A DNA stretch of 64,000 nucleotides from a phage, in NCBI GenBank assembly GCA_038314665.1, contig GCA_038314665.1_3677.1; one strand, given 5' to 3'. This document shows, one piece after another, positions 56,013 through 62,003 of the stretch (position 1 is its first letter; the number at the start of each line of letters is the position of its first letter). The position numbers and the translations under genes are program-made. The notes beneath the pieces were generated by a model. The model saw only the letters and a list, made by a program, of their open reading frames with translations. It made no database searches and was not told where the DNA came from.

Positions 56013-56041
56013 GGCCCTGCCCGAAAGGGTGGGGCTTTTTG
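56013..56041 (+). terminator. rho-independent terminator
   Basis: GCCCTGCCC-GAAA-GGGTGGGGC hairpin followed by TTTTTG; overlaps the track start of the next ORF, so the real start lies downstream. Confidence 0.65.
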
Positions 56042-56058
56042 CATTAGGAGACAGCAAA

Positions 56059-56823
56059 TTGAAATTTATCTACAAAGAACACTACCACAAAGGTGTTGTG
56101 TGGAGTCTATTTGACGGGTCTGGTGGTGCAGTCATTGACTGGGCAAAAGCTGGGTACCTGTGCCTGTGCTTTAATGCAGAAGGTGCTGATCACGGCAGTT
56201 ATGCAGAGGTGATAACCGATCATCCCAACATTCACTATGTGGATTATTGGATTGACCCATGGTTCCCTCAGGAAACTTTTTGCATGTACCCAGCTCCAGA
56301 CTTTATTCTTGCATTTCCTCCGTGCACGCATTTAGCGGTATCAGGTGCTGCACATTTTAAGAAAAAGCTGGCTAAGGACCCTATGATCCAAATTAATGCT
56401 GTAAAGGATGCTCGGGTTGCGGAAGAGCTGGGAGAGATTTACGATTGCCCGTGGCATGTAGAGAATCCTGTAGGTGTTATGTCCACACTGTGGCGCAAAC
56501 CTGATTACCGTTTTCATCCTTCTGACTATGGCGGGTATTTACCGGAGGATGATGTAAACCCTTGGTTTCCTGAATTTATAGCTCCACGCGATGCCTATCC
56601 AAAAATAACTTGCGGCTGGATAGGTAATGGATTTATAATCCCGGTCACAAAACCTGTCCCGCAAATAGTTGACGCGGTTAGCGGGTATTCCATGCAACAC
56701 GCTAAGCTAGGTGGAAAAAGTGCAAGGACGAAGATGATTCGAAGCCTCACGCCCCGTGGCTGGGCAAAAGCCGTATTCTTAGCAAACGAGCCTGTGGTAA
56801 GGAGCAGAATTAATGGGAAGTAA
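56059..56823 (+). CDS. DNA (cytosine-5)-methyltransferase-like protein
   Basis: Motif I-like LFDGSGG, motif IV-like FPPCTHLAVSG (Pro-Cys), ENV-like HVENPVG; TTG start at 56059 with AGGAGA RBS (start uncertain). Confidence 0.5.
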   Translation: MKFIYKEHYHKGVVWSLFDGSGGAVIDWAKAGYLCLCFNAEGADHGSYAEVITDHPNIHYVDYWIDPWFPQETFCMYPAPDFILAFPPCTHLAVSGAAHFKKKLAKDPMIQINAVKDARVAEELGEIYDCPWHVENPVGVMSTLWRKPDYRFHPSDYGGYLPEDDVNPWFPEFIAPRDAYPKITCGWIGNGFIIPVTKPVPQIVDAVSGYSMQHAKLGGKSARTKMIRSLTPRGWAKAVFLANEPVVRSRINGK

Positions 56824-58891
56824 ATTTATGGCATCTGCATATAACCGTTTCGGTGAGCCAAACCCGAAAGCAACTAAGTATAAAAGTGGGGGAAGTGTGA
56901 AACGAGACTATCGTGATGAAAAAGAGGTTGAAACTGTAGAGACTGTTTTAGAAAATACTAAAATCGTCCCTGTCCCACAACAAAATATCGGTCTGATGGC
57001 TGCACAATATTTTGGTGTGCGATCAGCATTGTCCCAAGAAGACGGTGTGACAGTTACTGCAACATATTTCCCATATTACGACCGCTACGGGAATCTGTCC
57101 GGTTTCAAAAAGCGTGACTGGACGATCCCCAAAGAGCAACGTGGGCACTTTACGACGGTTGGGATCGTAAAGGCTAACTCCCAAATGTTTGGGCAAAAGC
57201 TGTGTGCATCTTCTAACAACCGTAAGCAGATTAACGTTTGTGAGGGGGAAGGCGATGTTATTGCAGCATGGCAGGCTGCATATCAGATACAAGTAAAAGG
57301 GATTCTCACCAACGCTAAAGCCCCGGCAAAGGTGAAACAGTGGGCTAAAGAGGTCCAGGACGGGATCGATGCAGTTATCAACGGGGGTGATCTGGCAGGA
57401 AAACCCTGCCTGCCTTTTGTTGGAATTAACTGTGGATGTGCAAACGCAGTAGATACTTTTGCAAACAATGAGAAATTTATCCGTAGCTACGGAACAGTGG
57501 TCCTTGCAATGGACAACGATGCAGCTAACGAGGTAGAGAAGCAAAAACACGTTATCAAAGGTGTTGAAGCCACACATAATATCGCGGCATTTTTGATGGC
57601 TGATAACGTTTACCACGTGGAATACCCAAGTGAGGTAAACGACCCTGACGGTGTAAAAGATATCCGTGACATGCTGAAGGCTAAAAAGCTGGAAGATATT
57701 GTCAACATGTTCCGTCACCCAGTCAAATATGTGCCTGATGCTGTATCTGATTTAGAAGACTTCTCCATTGAATCTCTTCGTAAGAAGACTTCTAATGGCG
57801 TAGATATCAGCGCGGAGTTCCCTAAATTGCAGAAGATGCTGAAAGGACTTCACAAAGGCACCTTGATGATGCTGACAGGCCCATCTGGTGGTGGTAAAAC
57901 AACTGTAGCCAAGAAACTAGAGCACTGTATTGCAAAATACTTGATGGATCCGACATGCCCTAAAGCCGATGATTATGAAGAGGATGATCGCCTGTGTCTG
58001 ATTCACCTTGAAGAGGACCCTGAGGAAGCAATTAACTCTCTATACGCCAACCAGTTGGGGTTTGATGTTAAAGAGTTTGTTGAAGACCCTAGTCAGTTCC
58101 TGACTGATCAGGAGCATGCTGAGATTCACCAATCTTGGGCCAAGGCGGGAAAAATCAAAGTGTTCAAGCATTTTGGGTCTATTCCTGTAGATGAGTTGAT
58201 CACTAAGCTTAAACAAATGGTGTGTCTGTATCACTGCCGTTATATTGTGCTGGATCACCTGTCCATGGTAATTTCAGGGCTTAATGTTAAGGATGAGCGA
58301 AAAGAGCTGGACATGGCTATGACCCAACTAGCCGCGTTCTGTAAGCAGTTTAATGTGTTTATCTTGGTGATCGCTCACCTGAAACGCACAGAGATTGTGC
58401 CTCCAAAGGACAAGGATGGGAATCCGTTACCTTTCTGGTATCCTGTACGAAAAGAGAACCTTCGGGGTAGTGCCGGATTGGAGCAACTTAGCTGGGTAGT
58501 TGTTGGGGTGGAGGCAGAAGAGATGGTGGATCGTTCCCGTGGACGTGTCCGACTGGTAGGTCTTAAAAACCGCCCAGCAAAAACGTTAGGCATTGCGGAT
58601 ACCTTAGTTATGGATCCTCACACAGGTAAGTTCCATGATGCCAGCAACTGGTACTGGGACAAAGAAATGCAGATGTTCACAGACGGAGAAGGTGGGGAGG
58701 TTGTTTGGAGACCTCAAGCTATGTTTGAGGATCAAGAGCACGCAGTTGTAGAAACACCTGTAGGTAGGGTTGTGGCTGATAAGGTTGTAACTCCTACTGT
58801 TAACCATGTTGACACACAAGAAGACCTTCCGTATGATGATCCGTCCTCTGACCCTGTTCCCGGTTTTGAAGACGATGAAACACCTTTTTAA
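56813..58891 (+). CDS. primase-helicase (TOPRIM-like N-terminal region plus DnaB/gp4-like helicase)
   Basis: 692 aa; acidic VCEGEGDVIAA and AMDNDAANE in N-terminal half; helicase Walker A LTGPSGGGKT, Walker B IVLDHLSMV, motif NLRGSAGLEQ in C-terminal half; no N-terminal Cys4 zinc domain. Confidence 0.6.
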   Translation: MGSKFMASAYNRFGEPNPKATKYKSGGSVKRDYRDEKEVETVETVLENTKIVPVPQQNIGLMAAQYFGVRSALSQEDGVTVTATYFPYYDRYGNLSGFKKRDWTIPKEQRGHFTTVGIVKANSQMFGQKLCASSNNRKQINVCEGEGDVIAAWQAAYQIQVKGILTNAKAPAKVKQWAKEVQDGIDAVINGGDLAGKPCLPFVGINCGCANAVDTFANNEKFIRSYGTVVLAMDNDAANEVEKQKHVIKGVEATHNIAAFLMADNVYHVEYPSEVNDPDGVKDIRDMLKAKKLEDIVNMFRHPVKYVPDAVSDLEDFSIESLRKKTSNGVDISAEFPKLQKMLKGLHKGTLMMLTGPSGGGKTTVAKKLEHCIAKYLMDPTCPKADDYEEDDRLCLIHLEEDPEEAINSLYANQLGFDVKEFVEDPSQFLTDQEHAEIHQSWAKAGKIKVFKHFGSIPVDELITKLKQMVCLYHCRYIVLDHLSMVISGLNVKDERKELDMAMTQLAAFCKQFNVFILVIAHLKRTEIVPPKDKDGNPLPFWYPVRKENLRGSAGLEQLSWVVVGVEAEEMVDRSRGRVRLVGLKNRPAKTLGIADTLVMDPHTGKFHDASNWYWDKEMQMFTDGEGGEVVWRPQAMFEDQEHAVVETPVGRVVADKVVTPTVNHVDTQEDLPYDDPSSDPVPGFEDDETPF

Positions 58892-58949
58892 TGTTTAACC
58901 AAGAGTGGGAGGGGTAGTACAACCGCCTCCCCTTTAAGGAGAACTGTAT

Positions 58950-61379
58950 ATGAGTATGTGGTCTTTCGACCTGGAGGCCTCTGGTTTACTAGAAGACCTA
59001 GATCTTTATTATCACTGCGGCTTGTTTAAAGAGCTGAATAAGAACCGTTTTATGCTGTTCCTTCCTCTAAATGACCGCACACACTACTCTGAAGAGGATA
59101 TAGAGAAGGCTAAGAACTTTATTCTGGCAAAGAAAACTCTTTATAAAGATTTTGAAGTTCGCATAGCAGATTTTTCAGAGTTGGAAGGTTGGCTTACAGG
59201 CAATTCTGACTGGTCACCCACAGCTTTGAACTGCCACAACTGCTACAGCTACGACTTTATGCTGATGGAGAGATTGTCCGGTATTCATTTTGATATGTTC
59301 CGTGATCCTAAGTGTATGGGGACTATCAACGACCACCAGGTTAATCTGTTTGATACATTGGCTATGAGCCGAATTTTGTGGCCTGACCGACCTTTGCCAA
59401 AAGGTTGTCCAGACTCAGTATTTAACCCGGTTACTAAGAAAATGCAGCCTGTTGGACCTCACGGTCTTATGGCATGGGGCTACGCCCTTGGTAACCAGAA
59501 AGTTCAAATTGATGACTGGCGCGATCTCCCGTTGTGGAAGTATGTGGATCGTGTATTCGAGGACGTTATCATCCAGGAGCTACTCTGGAAAGAGCTGGTA
59601 GCGGAATCAAAAGGTGTATTCTACGGCAAATCTGACATGCAGAACTTTATGTACGATCCAGCCAAAGAGAAGCCGAAAGGGTTCAAGAAGATCACCTGGA
59701 AGAACGCATTACGTCGAGGCATGCTGCAGCACTTCCTGATGGAGCTGCAGGCCCGTCAGGGTGTATACTTCGACATAGATGGAGCTATTGCTTTACGTGA
59801 CCGTTGCGATGCGTGGATGAAAGAAATAGCTGATCGTGTTGAACCACAACTGCCTTTAAAAGAGCTGTCAATGTCTCAGCGGCCCAAATTCCCTGAAAAG
59901 CCGTTTAACCAAGACGGGACAATCTCTAATAATGGTTGGAAATGGTTAAAAGATAAGCTTGGCTATCCTGTAGACATGAGCGCTTTAGAGTTCAAAGCCC
60001 CGCCTAAGAGAGCATTTACCTCTACAGGGGATGTCAGCAAGATGGGGATAAAATGGTGTGAAGAGATGGGCTGCAAAGACCCCGATAAGATGGCTGATTT
60101 CTTGAGAGGCTATATTAAGGGCACTTCCACACCACACCCTTTGCCTAAAGAGCTGATGGATCAGGCAATAAGTGATCTACAGCAGAAGCGAATGCCGGAC
60201 TGCAAGATACCTATGAAAATCAGCAATCAGGACGACATTAAGCGGTATCTGATCAGCGCTGGCTGGCTCCCGACAATGTGGAGAACTAAGGATGTAACTA
60301 AAGACAGCAAGAAGAAAGCTCTACCTGATGCAGATGTTGATGCACGAGTATATGCTTATATGGACGAGCTTTTAGAGTCAGAGTATTGTGACCTAATTAT
60401 CAACTTCTGGAACAAAACTGATGCTAAGTTCCAGACAACCGTGCACAAGTTCCGAAGCTTTCCTAACTCCGAAAGGATTAAAAAGGAAGTGTTCGGGAAA
60501 ATACGTAGAAAAGCCAGGGCACTTATTACTTCTCCGCAACTGAAAGATACGTTTGGACACCTGTGCCCGAATCTTGAAAAATTGAACGGAGAGATGGCTA
60601 AAGATATCGTCTTGTGGTTATCATTGCGAAACCGCAGATCGGTCCTTGACCCAATCAAGGAGGATAAGGTTGATACTGGTCTTCTTAATCACCCACGTTT
60701 GAAGATTGACCATAAGCTTCCTGCTAAAAGTTCTGGGCTAACAAACACTTCCAGACAGAAACACAGTATTTGTGCAAACATGCCTAAACCATCTCCTAAA
60801 GTGGTTATGGGTAAAGAGATGCGTAGTCTATGGGGTGTTCCTCCTGGATACTTTCAGATCGGTATTGACGGGTCCAACTTAGAGCAGCTTATCGGGGCTT
60901 GGGGTGCCTTTGAGTTCGACAACGGCCTGTATTATGATGTTGTAAGTAACGGAGACGCACACCAAAACAATGCTGAGGCATATACAAAAGTAGCAGGCAG
61001 AGAGGTGTCCCGTAACGACGGTAAACCTATCACGTATGGTGTTATGTACGGGGCACAAAAAGATAAAGTTGCAGATATGCTGGACATCTCTCCAGAGTTG
61101 GGGCAAAGGGTAATAGATGCACTTTGGGATGCCAACCCCGGTCTTAAGGGGCGCAAAGAGGATCTGGAGAAATTCTGGGAAGCAACAGGTAAGAAGTTTA
61201 TCTACTCTTTTGATGGTCATGCTATCTGGACCCGATCTAAACACTCTTTACTTAATGCATACCAACAAAATGGTGGTGCATCGCTGTGTGACTTAGTCGG
61301 GATACTCATGCACCACCAAATGGTGAAGCGTGGGTGGTACGATGAAGGTGTCCGTCGTATTATTTATTACCATAAATAA
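58950..61379 (+). CDS. family A DNA polymerase, exon 1 (exonuclease, motif A and motif B)
   Basis: 809-aa ORF; N-terminal FDLEASGL (Exo I DxE), motif A GIDGSNLEQL, motif B RNDGKPITYGVMYGA; ORF stops before a canonical motif C region is completed. Confidence 0.65.
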   Translation: MSMWSFDLEASGLLEDLDLYYHCGLFKELNKNRFMLFLPLNDRTHYSEEDIEKAKNFILAKKTLYKDFEVRIADFSELEGWLTGNSDWSPTALNCHNCYSYDFMLMERLSGIHFDMFRDPKCMGTINDHQVNLFDTLAMSRILWPDRPLPKGCPDSVFNPVTKKMQPVGPHGLMAWGYALGNQKVQIDDWRDLPLWKYVDRVFEDVIIQELLWKELVAESKGVFYGKSDMQNFMYDPAKEKPKGFKKITWKNALRRGMLQHFLMELQARQGVYFDIDGAIALRDRCDAWMKEIADRVEPQLPLKELSMSQRPKFPEKPFNQDGTISNNGWKWLKDKLGYPVDMSALEFKAPPKRAFTSTGDVSKMGIKWCEEMGCKDPDKMADFLRGYIKGTSTPHPLPKELMDQAISDLQQKRMPDCKIPMKISNQDDIKRYLISAGWLPTMWRTKDVTKDSKKKALPDADVDARVYAYMDELLESEYCDLIINFWNKTDAKFQTTVHKFRSFPNSERIKKEVFGKIRRKARALITSPQLKDTFGHLCPNLEKLNGEMAKDIVLWLSLRNRRSVLDPIKEDKVDTGLLNHPRLKIDHKLPAKSSGLTNTSRQKHSICANMPKPSPKVVMGKEMRSLWGVPPGYFQIGIDGSNLEQLIGAWGAFEFDNGLYYDVVSNGDAHQNNAEAYTKVAGREVSRNDGKPITYGVMYGAQKDKVADMLDISPELGQRVIDALWDANPGLKGRKEDLEKFWEATGKKFIYSFDGHAIWTRSKHSLLNAYQQNGGASLCDLVGILMHHQMVKRGWYDEGVRRIIYYHK

Positions 61380-61646
61380 CATTGTGGCTTCATAGAGTAA
61401 TCTATGTCGAATAACCTCTTTAACTGCGGGAAGCCTAAACCTTATGGCAAGGTAATCCGCAACGAAGCGCTCAAAAGAGCGAACGCTCAGAGGCCATTCC
61501 GAAAGGAAGTAGACCAGCAAGTGCGGTCGAAATGGGAGGATTCCTGTGGTTGCTTATCATAGGAATATGAGATGGTCCGATCCTACGTGAAAACGTATGG
61601 CTATGCACGTAATGGTGCGGGGTAGCTTAACGACCTACCTGAACTA
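61380..61646 (+). ncRNA. putative group I self-splicing intron core in the DNA polymerase gene
   Basis: Non-coding gap containing, in order, P-like CTGCGGGAAG, Q-like AATCCGCAAC, R-like GCTCAGAGGCCA and S-like GAGATGGTCC elements with short hairpins between; exact splice sites not determined, 5' site probably lies inside the last codons of exon 1. Confidence 0.5.
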
Positions 61647-62003
61647 TTGGATGAGTACCAACTTCAAGTGCCTGACACACCGAAGTATAAGACTGTGTAC
61701 ACCTTCGACACAATTGAAGAACTGGAAGCATTTAAGGCAGAGCAGGAGGCCAAACTTCATGTGTTCGACGGTCATAAGTACAAAAAGGCACGCAAGGATG
61801 AGGACGGAAACGAAGTGGTTGACAGAGACGGAAACACGGTGTACGATCCTATTCTGAACGATGACGGAAAGCTTGAACTTATCTGGAGCCCTGTGGGTGA
61901 AATGGTGGTGCATTGCTTCTGGCAAGCTTCTAAAATGATGGGAGTCCCGTTCCAGATCACAGGTGAATACTTGTGTGGTCGTAACTGGGGTGATTGTCAC
62001 TAA
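61647..62003 (+). CDS. family A DNA polymerase, candidate exon 2 (C-terminal segment)
   Basis: Frame opens at 61626 without ATG or RBS; ends ...GRNWGDCH, resembling the conserved pol A C-terminus ending in His (E. coli pol I ...GENWDQAH, T7 ...GPNWAICH, recalled). Confidence 0.45.
   Translation: MDEYQLQVPDTPKYKTVYTFDTIEELEAFKAEQEAKLHVFDGHKYKKARKDEDGNEVVDRDGNTVYDPILNDDGKLELIWSPVGEMVVHCFWQASKMMGVPFQITGEYLCGRNWGDCH

Follow-up and report, generated by a model that had tools for sequence, protein, structure and literature searches.

A group I intron interrupting motif C of the family A DNA polymerase gene in an rV5-like coliphage

Two neighbouring reading frames of a phage genome together resemble a family A DNA polymerase, raising the question of where the catalytic carboxylates of motif C are encoded. 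The locus lies within the window, the 64,000-nt stretch of DNA analysed here, which comes from an rV5-like coliphage (Vequintavirus) and is 99.3% identical in DNA to phage LL12 across the polymerase gene. An upstream ORF (58950..61379) is followed by a downstream ORF (61647..62003), whose TTG start at 61647 was assigned mechanically. A primase-helicase is encoded at 56813..58891. The original prediction held that motif C was non-canonical, HDE not being readable, and offered in its place YDE (in RGWYDEG) or FDT/FDG (in YTFDTIEEL and KLHVFDGH). These strings do exist, the first as residues 794-800 of the upstream ORF and the others in the downstream ORF, and neither ORF alone contains HDE; reading across the intervening DNA, however, gives YYH/DEYQLQV, where the slash marks the insertion site. 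HDE is missing from each ORF alone because a group I intron separates the H codon from the DE codons. We conclude with high confidence that the family A polymerase gene is split by a 276-nt group I intron inserted at H/DE, inside motif C, and that its product carries a canonical YHDE.

Exons and boundaries of the intron

Exon 1 (58950..61373, plus strand) encodes residues 1-808 of the polymerase, as defined by the ORF list, alignment with T7 polymerase, 20 relatives and intron-less alleles, and its final codon, CAT (61371-61373), is H808 of HDE. Exon 2 (61650..62003, plus strand), placed from the intron-less alleles and the same 20 relatives, encodes residues 809-925 and the stop codon (62001-62003). 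It opens one codon past the TTG start with GAT GAG (61650-61655), the motif C carboxylates D809 and E810. The 276-nt intron (61374..61649, plus strand) lies between them, with its boundaries demonstrated by the intron-less alleles L004, L005 and L006, which read TATTACCAT/GATGAG uninterrupted. A 176-aa peptide across the junction matches these alleles in a single piece at 100% identity. An uninterrupted junction was found in 58 phage records, and the intron is missing from roughly half of the related phages, Murica and slur16 being examples without it; this demonstrates a presence/absence polymorphism. Excision of the intron demonstrably restores the reading frame, the spliced 925-aa ORF being that of the intron-less alleles.

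Rfam family RF00028 matches the interval 61364-61599 at 64.7 bits (gathering score 50; E 4e-14) over the full model (1-253). This match and the intron-less alleles bear out the original suggestion that the gene is intron-split. The intron begins with AAATAA, giving an in-frame stop at 61377-61379, and ends in G61649 (omega-G), which is invariant in six homologues. An intein was ruled out by in-frame stops from the second codon of the insert together with the ribozyme fold. An Rfam scan of the 64-kb window at E values up to 0.1 found no second intron and no other RNA family, and there were no tRNA genes in the window.

Phage LL12 (MH491969, AXC42883.1) carries the same arrangement: its record gives the CDS as a join of two segments, labelled 'intron-interrupted gene', with a splice site predicted from homology with a polymerase that has no intron. 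The 925-aa LL12 product is one residue apart from the present spliced product (E832Q), and the DNA differs by point changes only.

Motif C of E. coli Pol I is H881-D882-E883, and we take intron site 881 of phages PhiI and W31, compared by numbering, to be the equivalent of the present H/DE site. The T7-like phages PhiI and W31 have polymerase group I introns at site 881 in E. coli Pol I numbering (Bonocora and Shub 2004), according to PMC3428280, where AY769990 is one of the accessions listed. They differ from the present phage in phage family and polymerase lineage. The same source places the polymerase introns of SPO1, SP82, Bastille and Pf-WMP3 at site 674 (E. coli numbering), in the finger subdomain; unlike the present intron, these lie outside motif C. 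The same H/DE site harbours an intron in phages of Escherichia, Pectobacterium and Vibrio and, by published accounts, in T7-like phages.

Ribozyme fold and splicing

The intron has a covariation-backed ribozyme fold, with all helices on the plus strand. P1 (61370..61387) was assigned from the Rfam alignment, RNAalifold and pair counts, every pair being kept in all six sequences; in it, the internal guide UUGUGG (61382-61387) is base-paired with CCAU/AA of the 5' exon and intron (61370-61375), and the wobble U61373-G61384 marks the 5' splice site. The guide part of a candidate P10 (61380..61383) is predicted from sequence to pair with GAUG of exon 2 (61650-61653) over 4 bp (GAUG with CAUU: G61650-U61383, A61651-U61382, U61652-A61381 and G61653-C61380). 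Covariation speaks neither for nor against P1 and P10, because their columns are invariant or almost so.

The catalytic core, P3 to P8 (61415..61577), was assigned by RNAalifold and pair counts in the six homologues. P3 (61415-61420 with 61534-61539) is 100% paired, with compensatory change in two pairs, and P4 (61425-61430 with 61456-61461) is 98-100% paired, with at least one compensatory change. P5 (61433-61435 with 61451-61453) and P6/P6a (61462-61486) follow. P7 (61492-61496 with 61573-61577), which forms a pseudoknot with P3, is 100% paired with one compensatory pair, while P7.2 (61512-61528; two compensatory pairs) and P8 (61540-61566; at least one compensatory change) are each 98-100% paired. 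The P7.1 hairpin (61497-61508) is seen in the present copy only; the Vibrio homologues lack it. Compensatory changes also affect five pairs of P9 (61582-61600), which has a GAAA loop, one pair of P9.1 (61604-61619) and three pairs of P9.2 (61620-61640); these peripheral 3' helices (61582..61640) extend partly past the end of the Rfam match.

Among the six homologues compared, all inserted at this one site and some of them from Vibrio phages whose polymerase tail is just ~35% identical, 98.4% of cells were paired and 28 of 72 pairs showed compensatory changes, against 32-43% paired and 1-6 compensatory pairs in slid controls. The thermodynamic fold alone was moderately better than shuffles (z = -2.83) and did not reproduce the pseudoknotted core; the single-sequence minimum-free-energy fold was left out of the structure assignment. 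RNAalifold also drew a long-range helix across the 3' splice site (61575-61581 with 61646-61652). This was replaced by the P7 pseudoknot, because P7 has a compensatory change and RNAalifold cannot draw pseudoknots. P7.2, and the P7.1 hairpin in the present copy, make the intron a candidate member of subgroup IA (IA2-like). The PhiI and W31 introns reportedly belong to subgroup IA2 and carry an HNH gene in P6a.

Following the standard group I pathway, the pre-mRNA would fold into a P1-P10 ribozyme, in which an external guanosine would attack after U61373, held as a U-G wobble in P1. The free 3' OH of exon 1 would then attack after omega-G61649, with P10 aligning exon 2, and translation of the ligated mRNA would yield a single T7-like polymerase of family A, 925 aa long, in which YHDE is canonical. 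Unspliced RNA would reach a stop at the second intron codon (AAA TAA), giving an 809-residue protein without the catalytic carboxylates.

A close parallel is found in Pectobacterium phage CB7 (Certrevirus, Vequintavirinae), whose intron between CB7_51 and CB7_49 occupies the identical site (...RRIIYYH/DEYQLEV...), shares the P1 guide (TACCAT/AAGTAACATTGTGGC) and, in the intron parts common to both, is ~75% identical in DNA. The CB7 intron splices in vivo, as established by RT-PCR and Sanger sequencing (PMC7344957). By analogy with this same-site homologue, the present copy probably splices as well, and would do so by guanosine-dependent self-splicing. The two differ in that the CB7 intron carries an HNH endonuclease gene, CB7_50, which the present intron lacks; the CB7 polymerase also has a second, upstream intron that is absent from the window.

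Alternatively, polypeptides of 809 and ~117 aa could assemble after translation with no splicing at all, like the split NrdA of Aeromonas phage Aeh1. Non-splicing split genes do occur in phages, as discussed in PMC7344957, and the TTG at 61647 provides a possible start for the downstream ORF. We nevertheless regard this as very improbable, given that the intervening RNA is a complete group I core with covariation, that no Shine-Dalgarno-like sequence could be seen by eye before 61647, that H and DE would be parted within a single beta hairpin, and that the homologous CB7 intron does splice.

Returning to a spliced intron, it has longer relatives in the 843-nt FFH2-type introns of other Vequintaviruses (NC_024134), which share the site and core and are ~85% identical in the 3' half. 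The FFH2-type intron has longer P5 and P7.1 regions and, in the P6 loop, an ORF of 168 aa that carries an HNH endonuclease annotation (Pfam HNH_3 match weak, 17.7 bits, below the cut-off). No endonuclease ORF was found in the present intron, whose only two ORFs (52 and 86 aa) match nothing in Pfam; compared with FFH2-type copies it is an ORF-less, trimmed form. Loss of the P6 HNH gene and of the P5 and P7.1 extensions could suggest a decayed, splicing-dead relic that leaves the polymerase a pseudogene or helper-reliant, but we give this almost no credence in view of the intact core helices, the 99-100% identity of the 276-nt form across 23 records of phages isolated as viable, and obvious purifying selection on the polymerase exons.

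The joined polymerase

Once the exons are joined, the polymerase is 925 aa long and reads ...RRIIYYH/DEYQLQV.... From the sequence, the spliced junction is predicted to read ...UAUUACCAU followed directly by GAUGAGUAC... in DNA and ...UACCAU/GAUGAG... in RNA, and the tryptic peptide predicted to span it is IIYYHDEYQLQVPDTPK. In the alignment with T7 polymerase (residues 633-813), motif A D640 and motif B K692 and Y696 lie within exon 1. The alignment continues through the junction to HDEIQV (T7 match E 1e-16), YYHDEYQL being aligned with T7 WVHDEIQV. The distance from motif A to motif C, D640-D809, is 169 residues, compared with 179 in T7 (D475-D654). All 20 divergent relatives conserve H808, D809 and E810 without exception, and likewise D640, K692 and Y696 and, in exon 2, G918, W921 and H925. 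The C-terminus of exon 2, ...GRNWGDCH, presumably resembles that of T7 polymerase, ...GPNWAICH. A homologue search by protein returned only relatives at least 99% identical; the diversity in the alignment and model comes from a separate representative search.

In a comparison of the joined product with a pol A profile, one of the checks initially proposed, the spliced protein scored 32.6 bits against Pfam PF00476 (DNA_pol_A), just below the curated cut-off of 34.3; its matches to T7 in sequence and fold are strong. PF00476.27 is listed for the same polymerase protein in a precomputed table. Structure prediction, also proposed, favoured a T7-like fold. In the AlphaFold2 model of the spliced protein (pLDDT 83.9), H808-D809 sits at a beta-hairpin turn between strands 802-807 and 810-816, and the best Foldseek matches are T7 DNA polymerase (E 4e-24, target-normalised TM-score 0.65-0.71), with Klenow also matched (E 1.7e-14).

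The view that splicing would decide whether the catalytic carboxylates are intact proved correct, the junction sitting at H/DE. A motif C that is genuinely non-canonical (YDE, or FDT/FDG), with carboxylates altered or hanging on an unusual junction, is extremely unlikely. It drew on the lack of HDE in either ORF and on the candidate strings, but the T7 alignment puts the true motif at YYHDEYQL, the T7 counterpart of RGWYDEG is a W-DG (KHGW-DG) with no catalytic role, FDT and FDG both fall in a clade-specific variable insertion for which relatives show no conservation, HDE is invariant in 20 relatives, and the junction fixed by intron-less alleles already refutes it. With the junction placed within the motif, the joined product has a standard HDE at T7-like spacing. 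Such a product, named at the outset as what would refute a non-canonical motif, is implied by the intron-less alleles, annotated in LL12 and supported by published cDNA evidence for the homologous CB7 intron (PMC7344957). The spliced enzyme is normal because the intron falls exactly between H and DE of HDE.

The downstream frame had also been described as about 60 aa too long, with part of it possibly belonging to the intron or to an insertion. The length was well judged, since the tail past motif C has 115 residues against 49 in T7, an excess of 66. Of the two explanations the insertion stands and the intron does not: in intron-less alleles everything in the downstream ORF from D809 (61650) onwards is coding and contiguous, at 100% amino acid identity. 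The insertion (residues ~817-888; 61674..61889, plus strand) was delimited from the AlphaFold2 model, the 20-representative alignment and the intron-less alleles. In the model it comprises a strand (823-827), a helix (830-842), a low-confidence loop (842-875) and a second strand (883-887). Among the 20 representatives the tail past HDE ranges from 82 to 136 residues. On these sequence comparisons, the extra C-terminal residues are coding sequence and not intron: they form a variable insertion of the kind that characterises this polymerase clade. This variable 82-136-residue tail could be a functional module, for example a partner-protein docking site, rather than a passive loop.

Intron spread and annotation

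Phages with polymerase regions diverging by 3-6% from that of the window share its intron at 100% identity, and at the insertion site itself the intron-less alleles show numerous synonymous substitutions. Both observations fit active spread, and we tentatively raise, as a somewhat doubtful idea, that the ORF-less 276-nt intron is still spreading among rV5-like phages by mobilisation in trans. The mobilising agent might be the HNH endonuclease encoded within FFH2-type copies, or one that is free-standing, acting during co-infection.

An intron-split polymerase is an already known, ordinary feature, the near-identical phage LL12 carrying the same annotation, and current understanding is unchallenged by it. 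The main value of the finding lies in annotation, where the correct product is one 925-aa enzyme with its catalytic residues intact. Several public records give the polymerase as two genes, place spurious small ORFs in the intron or list a truncated 775-aa protein; examples are the rV5 RefSeq entry, FFH2 and JLBYU08, and the rV5 paper (PMC3606486) is among the misannotating sources. The locus is also a clean case of a group I intron placed at the most conserved codons of an essential gene.

A group I intron at the motif C codons

A primase-helicase ORF (56813..58891, + strand) is followed on the same strand by two polymerase ORFs separated by a 267-nt gap. The upstream ORF (58950..61379, +; 809 codons) ends ...RRIIYYHK and a stop, and the downstream ORF (61647..62003, +; 118 codons) begins LDEYQLQV... 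and ends ...GRNWGDCH. As the original prediction observed, the HDE of motif C is missing from each ORF taken singly; the upstream ORF ends on H before its final K and stop, and the downstream ORF has DE one codon after its start. Rfam RF00028 matched 61364..61599 (64.7 bits against a gathering score of 50; E 4e-14), and an Rfam scan (E up to 0.1) returned no other RNA family in the 64-kb window. The Rfam alignment places a U61373-G61384 U-G wobble in P1. Together with the terminal base G61649, this defines the intron as 61374..61649 (276 nt). It begins AAA UAA, so translation of unspliced RNA stops there, and P10 could form between guide bases C61380-U61383 and the first four bases of exon 2, GAUG.

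Intron-less relatives confirm these boundaries and the restored reading frame. The polymerase is uninterrupted in slur16, Pr121LW and the more distant Cronobacter phage GAP31, where ...TATTACCAT runs directly into GA(T/C)GA(G/A)... across the site. The 176-aa peptide spanning the predicted junction is 100% identical to intron-less phages, in which it is encoded by a single 528-nt piece. A 60-nt uninterrupted-junction probe matched 58 phage records; as about 120 rV5-like records carry the polymerase, roughly half therefore have no intron. Region 58950..62003 shares 99.3% nucleotide identity with Escherichia phage LL12; for rV5 and numerous other vequintaviruses the figure is 94-97%. The LL12 GenBank CDS is a two-part join, labelled 'intron-interrupted gene; intron splice site predicted based on homology', and its 925-aa product differs from the spliced translation of the window only by E832Q.

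Around the empty site of the intron-less phages (alleles L004 and L005 and the 58 probe matches), 60 nt are only 86-100% identical, against 98-100% for the junction peptide; this synonymous excess is what endonuclease-site escape or co-conversion would be expected to leave. Only a 58-nt spacer (58892-58949) separates the primase-helicase and polymerase genes here, whereas FFH2 (L003 770-1504, 4066-4572) carries a free-standing HNH endonuclease gene at this position in addition to its intron HNH gene. Upstream of the primase-helicase, a 264-aa ORF (56029-56823, +) has two strings, FDGSGG and FPPCTH, that to the eye recall motifs I and IV of cytosine-C5 DNA methyltransferases. Sixteen mostly unannotated records labelled as Campylobacter jejuni phages (MG0656xx; A142, D1, C2 and others) are 95-97% identical to the coliphage polymerase region, and their host label looks doubtful.

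Ribozyme fold and covariation

We evaluated the fold on an alignment of the window intron with five other ORF-less introns, all inserted exactly between H and DE: those of JLBYU08 and JEP1 (about 329 nt), Avunavirus 18-1-2 (317 nt) and Vibrio phages K412 and 10AMN (about 254 nt), the latter two having polymerase tails of only about 35% identity. Scoring covered P1, P2, P3, P4, P5, P6/P6a, the P7 pseudoknot, P7.2, P8, P9, P9.1 and P9.2, with controls in which the pairing partner was slid by 1-3 columns. Standard pairs filled 98.4% of cells in the proposed structure and 32-43% in the slid controls, and compensatory changes occurred in 28 of 72 pairs, as against 1-6 in the controls. Covariation thus supports the group I fold. 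The placement of P7.1/P7.2 between P7 and the P3 3' strand points to subgroup IA, which is only likely because P7.1 is not conserved. RNAalifold also proposed a conserved helix, 61575-61581 with 61646-61652 (GUCCGAU/AUUGGAU), which overlaps the P7 3' strand and spans the omega-G and 3' splice site; it could be either an alternative conformer or an artefact that arises because the prediction excludes pseudoknots.

The spliced polymerase

Across the junction, the spliced protein aligns ...RGWYDEGVRRIIYYHDEYQL with ...KHGW-DGDFAYMAWVHDEIQV of T7 DNA polymerase (overall E 1e-16). Across 20 representatives of 25-46% identity there is no variation at motif A residue D640, motif B residues K692 and Y696, motif C residues H808, D809 and E810, or the C-terminal residues G918, W921 and H925. 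Motif A lies 169 residues from motif C, compared with 179 in T7. An AlphaFold2 model (mean pLDDT 83.9, pTM 0.77) puts H808-D809 at the turn that joins strand 802-807 to strand 810-816; the best Foldseek matches were T7 polymerase structures (E 4e-24), then Klenow. The Pfam DNA_pol_A score (32.6 bits) falls slightly below the 34.3 cut-off, which we regard as a sensitivity issue in a divergent clade. Besides the loop in the tail described below, the model has low confidence (pLDDT below 50) at residues 223-248 (about 59616-59693), after the N-terminal exonuclease part.

The strings originally proposed as substitutes for HDE do exist: RGWYDEG at residues 794-800, and YTFDTIEEL and KLHVFDGH in the downstream frame. 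The same T7 alignment places YDE at a non-catalytic position, ruling it out as the catalytic motif, and FDT and FDG both lie in the variable C-terminal tail and are not conserved. The suggestion of a tail some 60 aa longer was close, with 115 residues following E810 compared with 49 in T7, a difference of 66. This extra length is not intronic but coding, since intron-less alleles contain it. A long tail is typical of the clade, spanning 82-136 residues in the 20 representatives. The variable stretch lies between the conserved HDExQ strand and YSRxGEL helix; the model predicts strand 823-827, helix 830-842, a low-confidence loop at 842-875 and strand 883-887, followed by the conserved C-terminal helix and strand.

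Standard group I splicing to a single canonical polymerase is almost certainly the best explanation. Guanosine would attack just after U61373, and the exons would then be ligated after G61649 with P1 and P10 as guides, leaving one canonical polymerase. A non-canonical motif C, a split gene that does not splice and a dead intron are very improbable even when taken together. The present analysis establishes the boundaries, the fold and the restored frame, whereas we infer that the window copy splices. Experiments on Pectobacterium phage CB7 support this: its homologous HNH-bearing intron occupies the identical site, between ...RRIIYYH and DEYQLEV..., and is reported to splice in vivo (RT-PCR, Sanger-confirmed; PMC7344957).

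Related introns and existing records

FFH2-type phages carry an 843-nt version of the intron with a 168-aa ORF in the P6 loop, annotated as an HNH endonuclease and weakly matching Pfam HNH_3 below cut-off. The window intron encodes no endonuclease; its internal 52-aa and 86-aa ORFs gave no Pfam match. In E. coli Pol I, motif C is H881-D882-E883. Two T7-like phages, PhiI and W31, are stated to have introns at site 881 when numbered as in E. coli Pol I (PMC3428280). As site 881 falls in that motif, these introns would share the insertion site in a different polymerase lineage. Phages rV5, PDX, navn, YP-6, EPFV3 and others carry the 276-nt intron with 100% identity, while their whole polymerase region, counted with the intron, matches that of the window at only 94-97%; this suggests that the ORF-less intron recently spread laterally or is unusually strongly constrained. 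Some relatives (JEP1, L008; P0121, P0122, P0128, P0129) carry about 320 aa of additional in-frame sequence within exon 1. In JEP1 the polymerase CDS reaches 1132 aa, and the alignment is interrupted around query residues 673-699, which fall between motifs A and B. Further polymerase-region records (H19, H23, H30) have about 970 extra bases. These additions are probably an intein or second intron, neither of which the window has.

Group I introns at conserved sites of phage polymerase genes are a textbook phenomenon, and this one is already known, being annotated in LL12 with published homologues. The rV5 RefSeq (NC_011041, 1501-4555, equivalent to 58950-62003) gives the polymerase as two 'DNA polymerase' CDSs, gp223 and gp220, starts it about 100 nt late and places hypothetical proteins gp222 and gp221 inside or overlapping the intron. 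In the rV5 paper the polymerase is 775 aa long, and the terminase gene is the only one for which introns are mentioned (PMC3606486). The split CDSs, gp222/gp221, late start and 775-aa length look like annotation artefacts. The practical value of the finding lies in fixing records, such as the rV5 RefSeq, that split the gene or place ORFs within the intron, and the published 775-aa length also needs correction.
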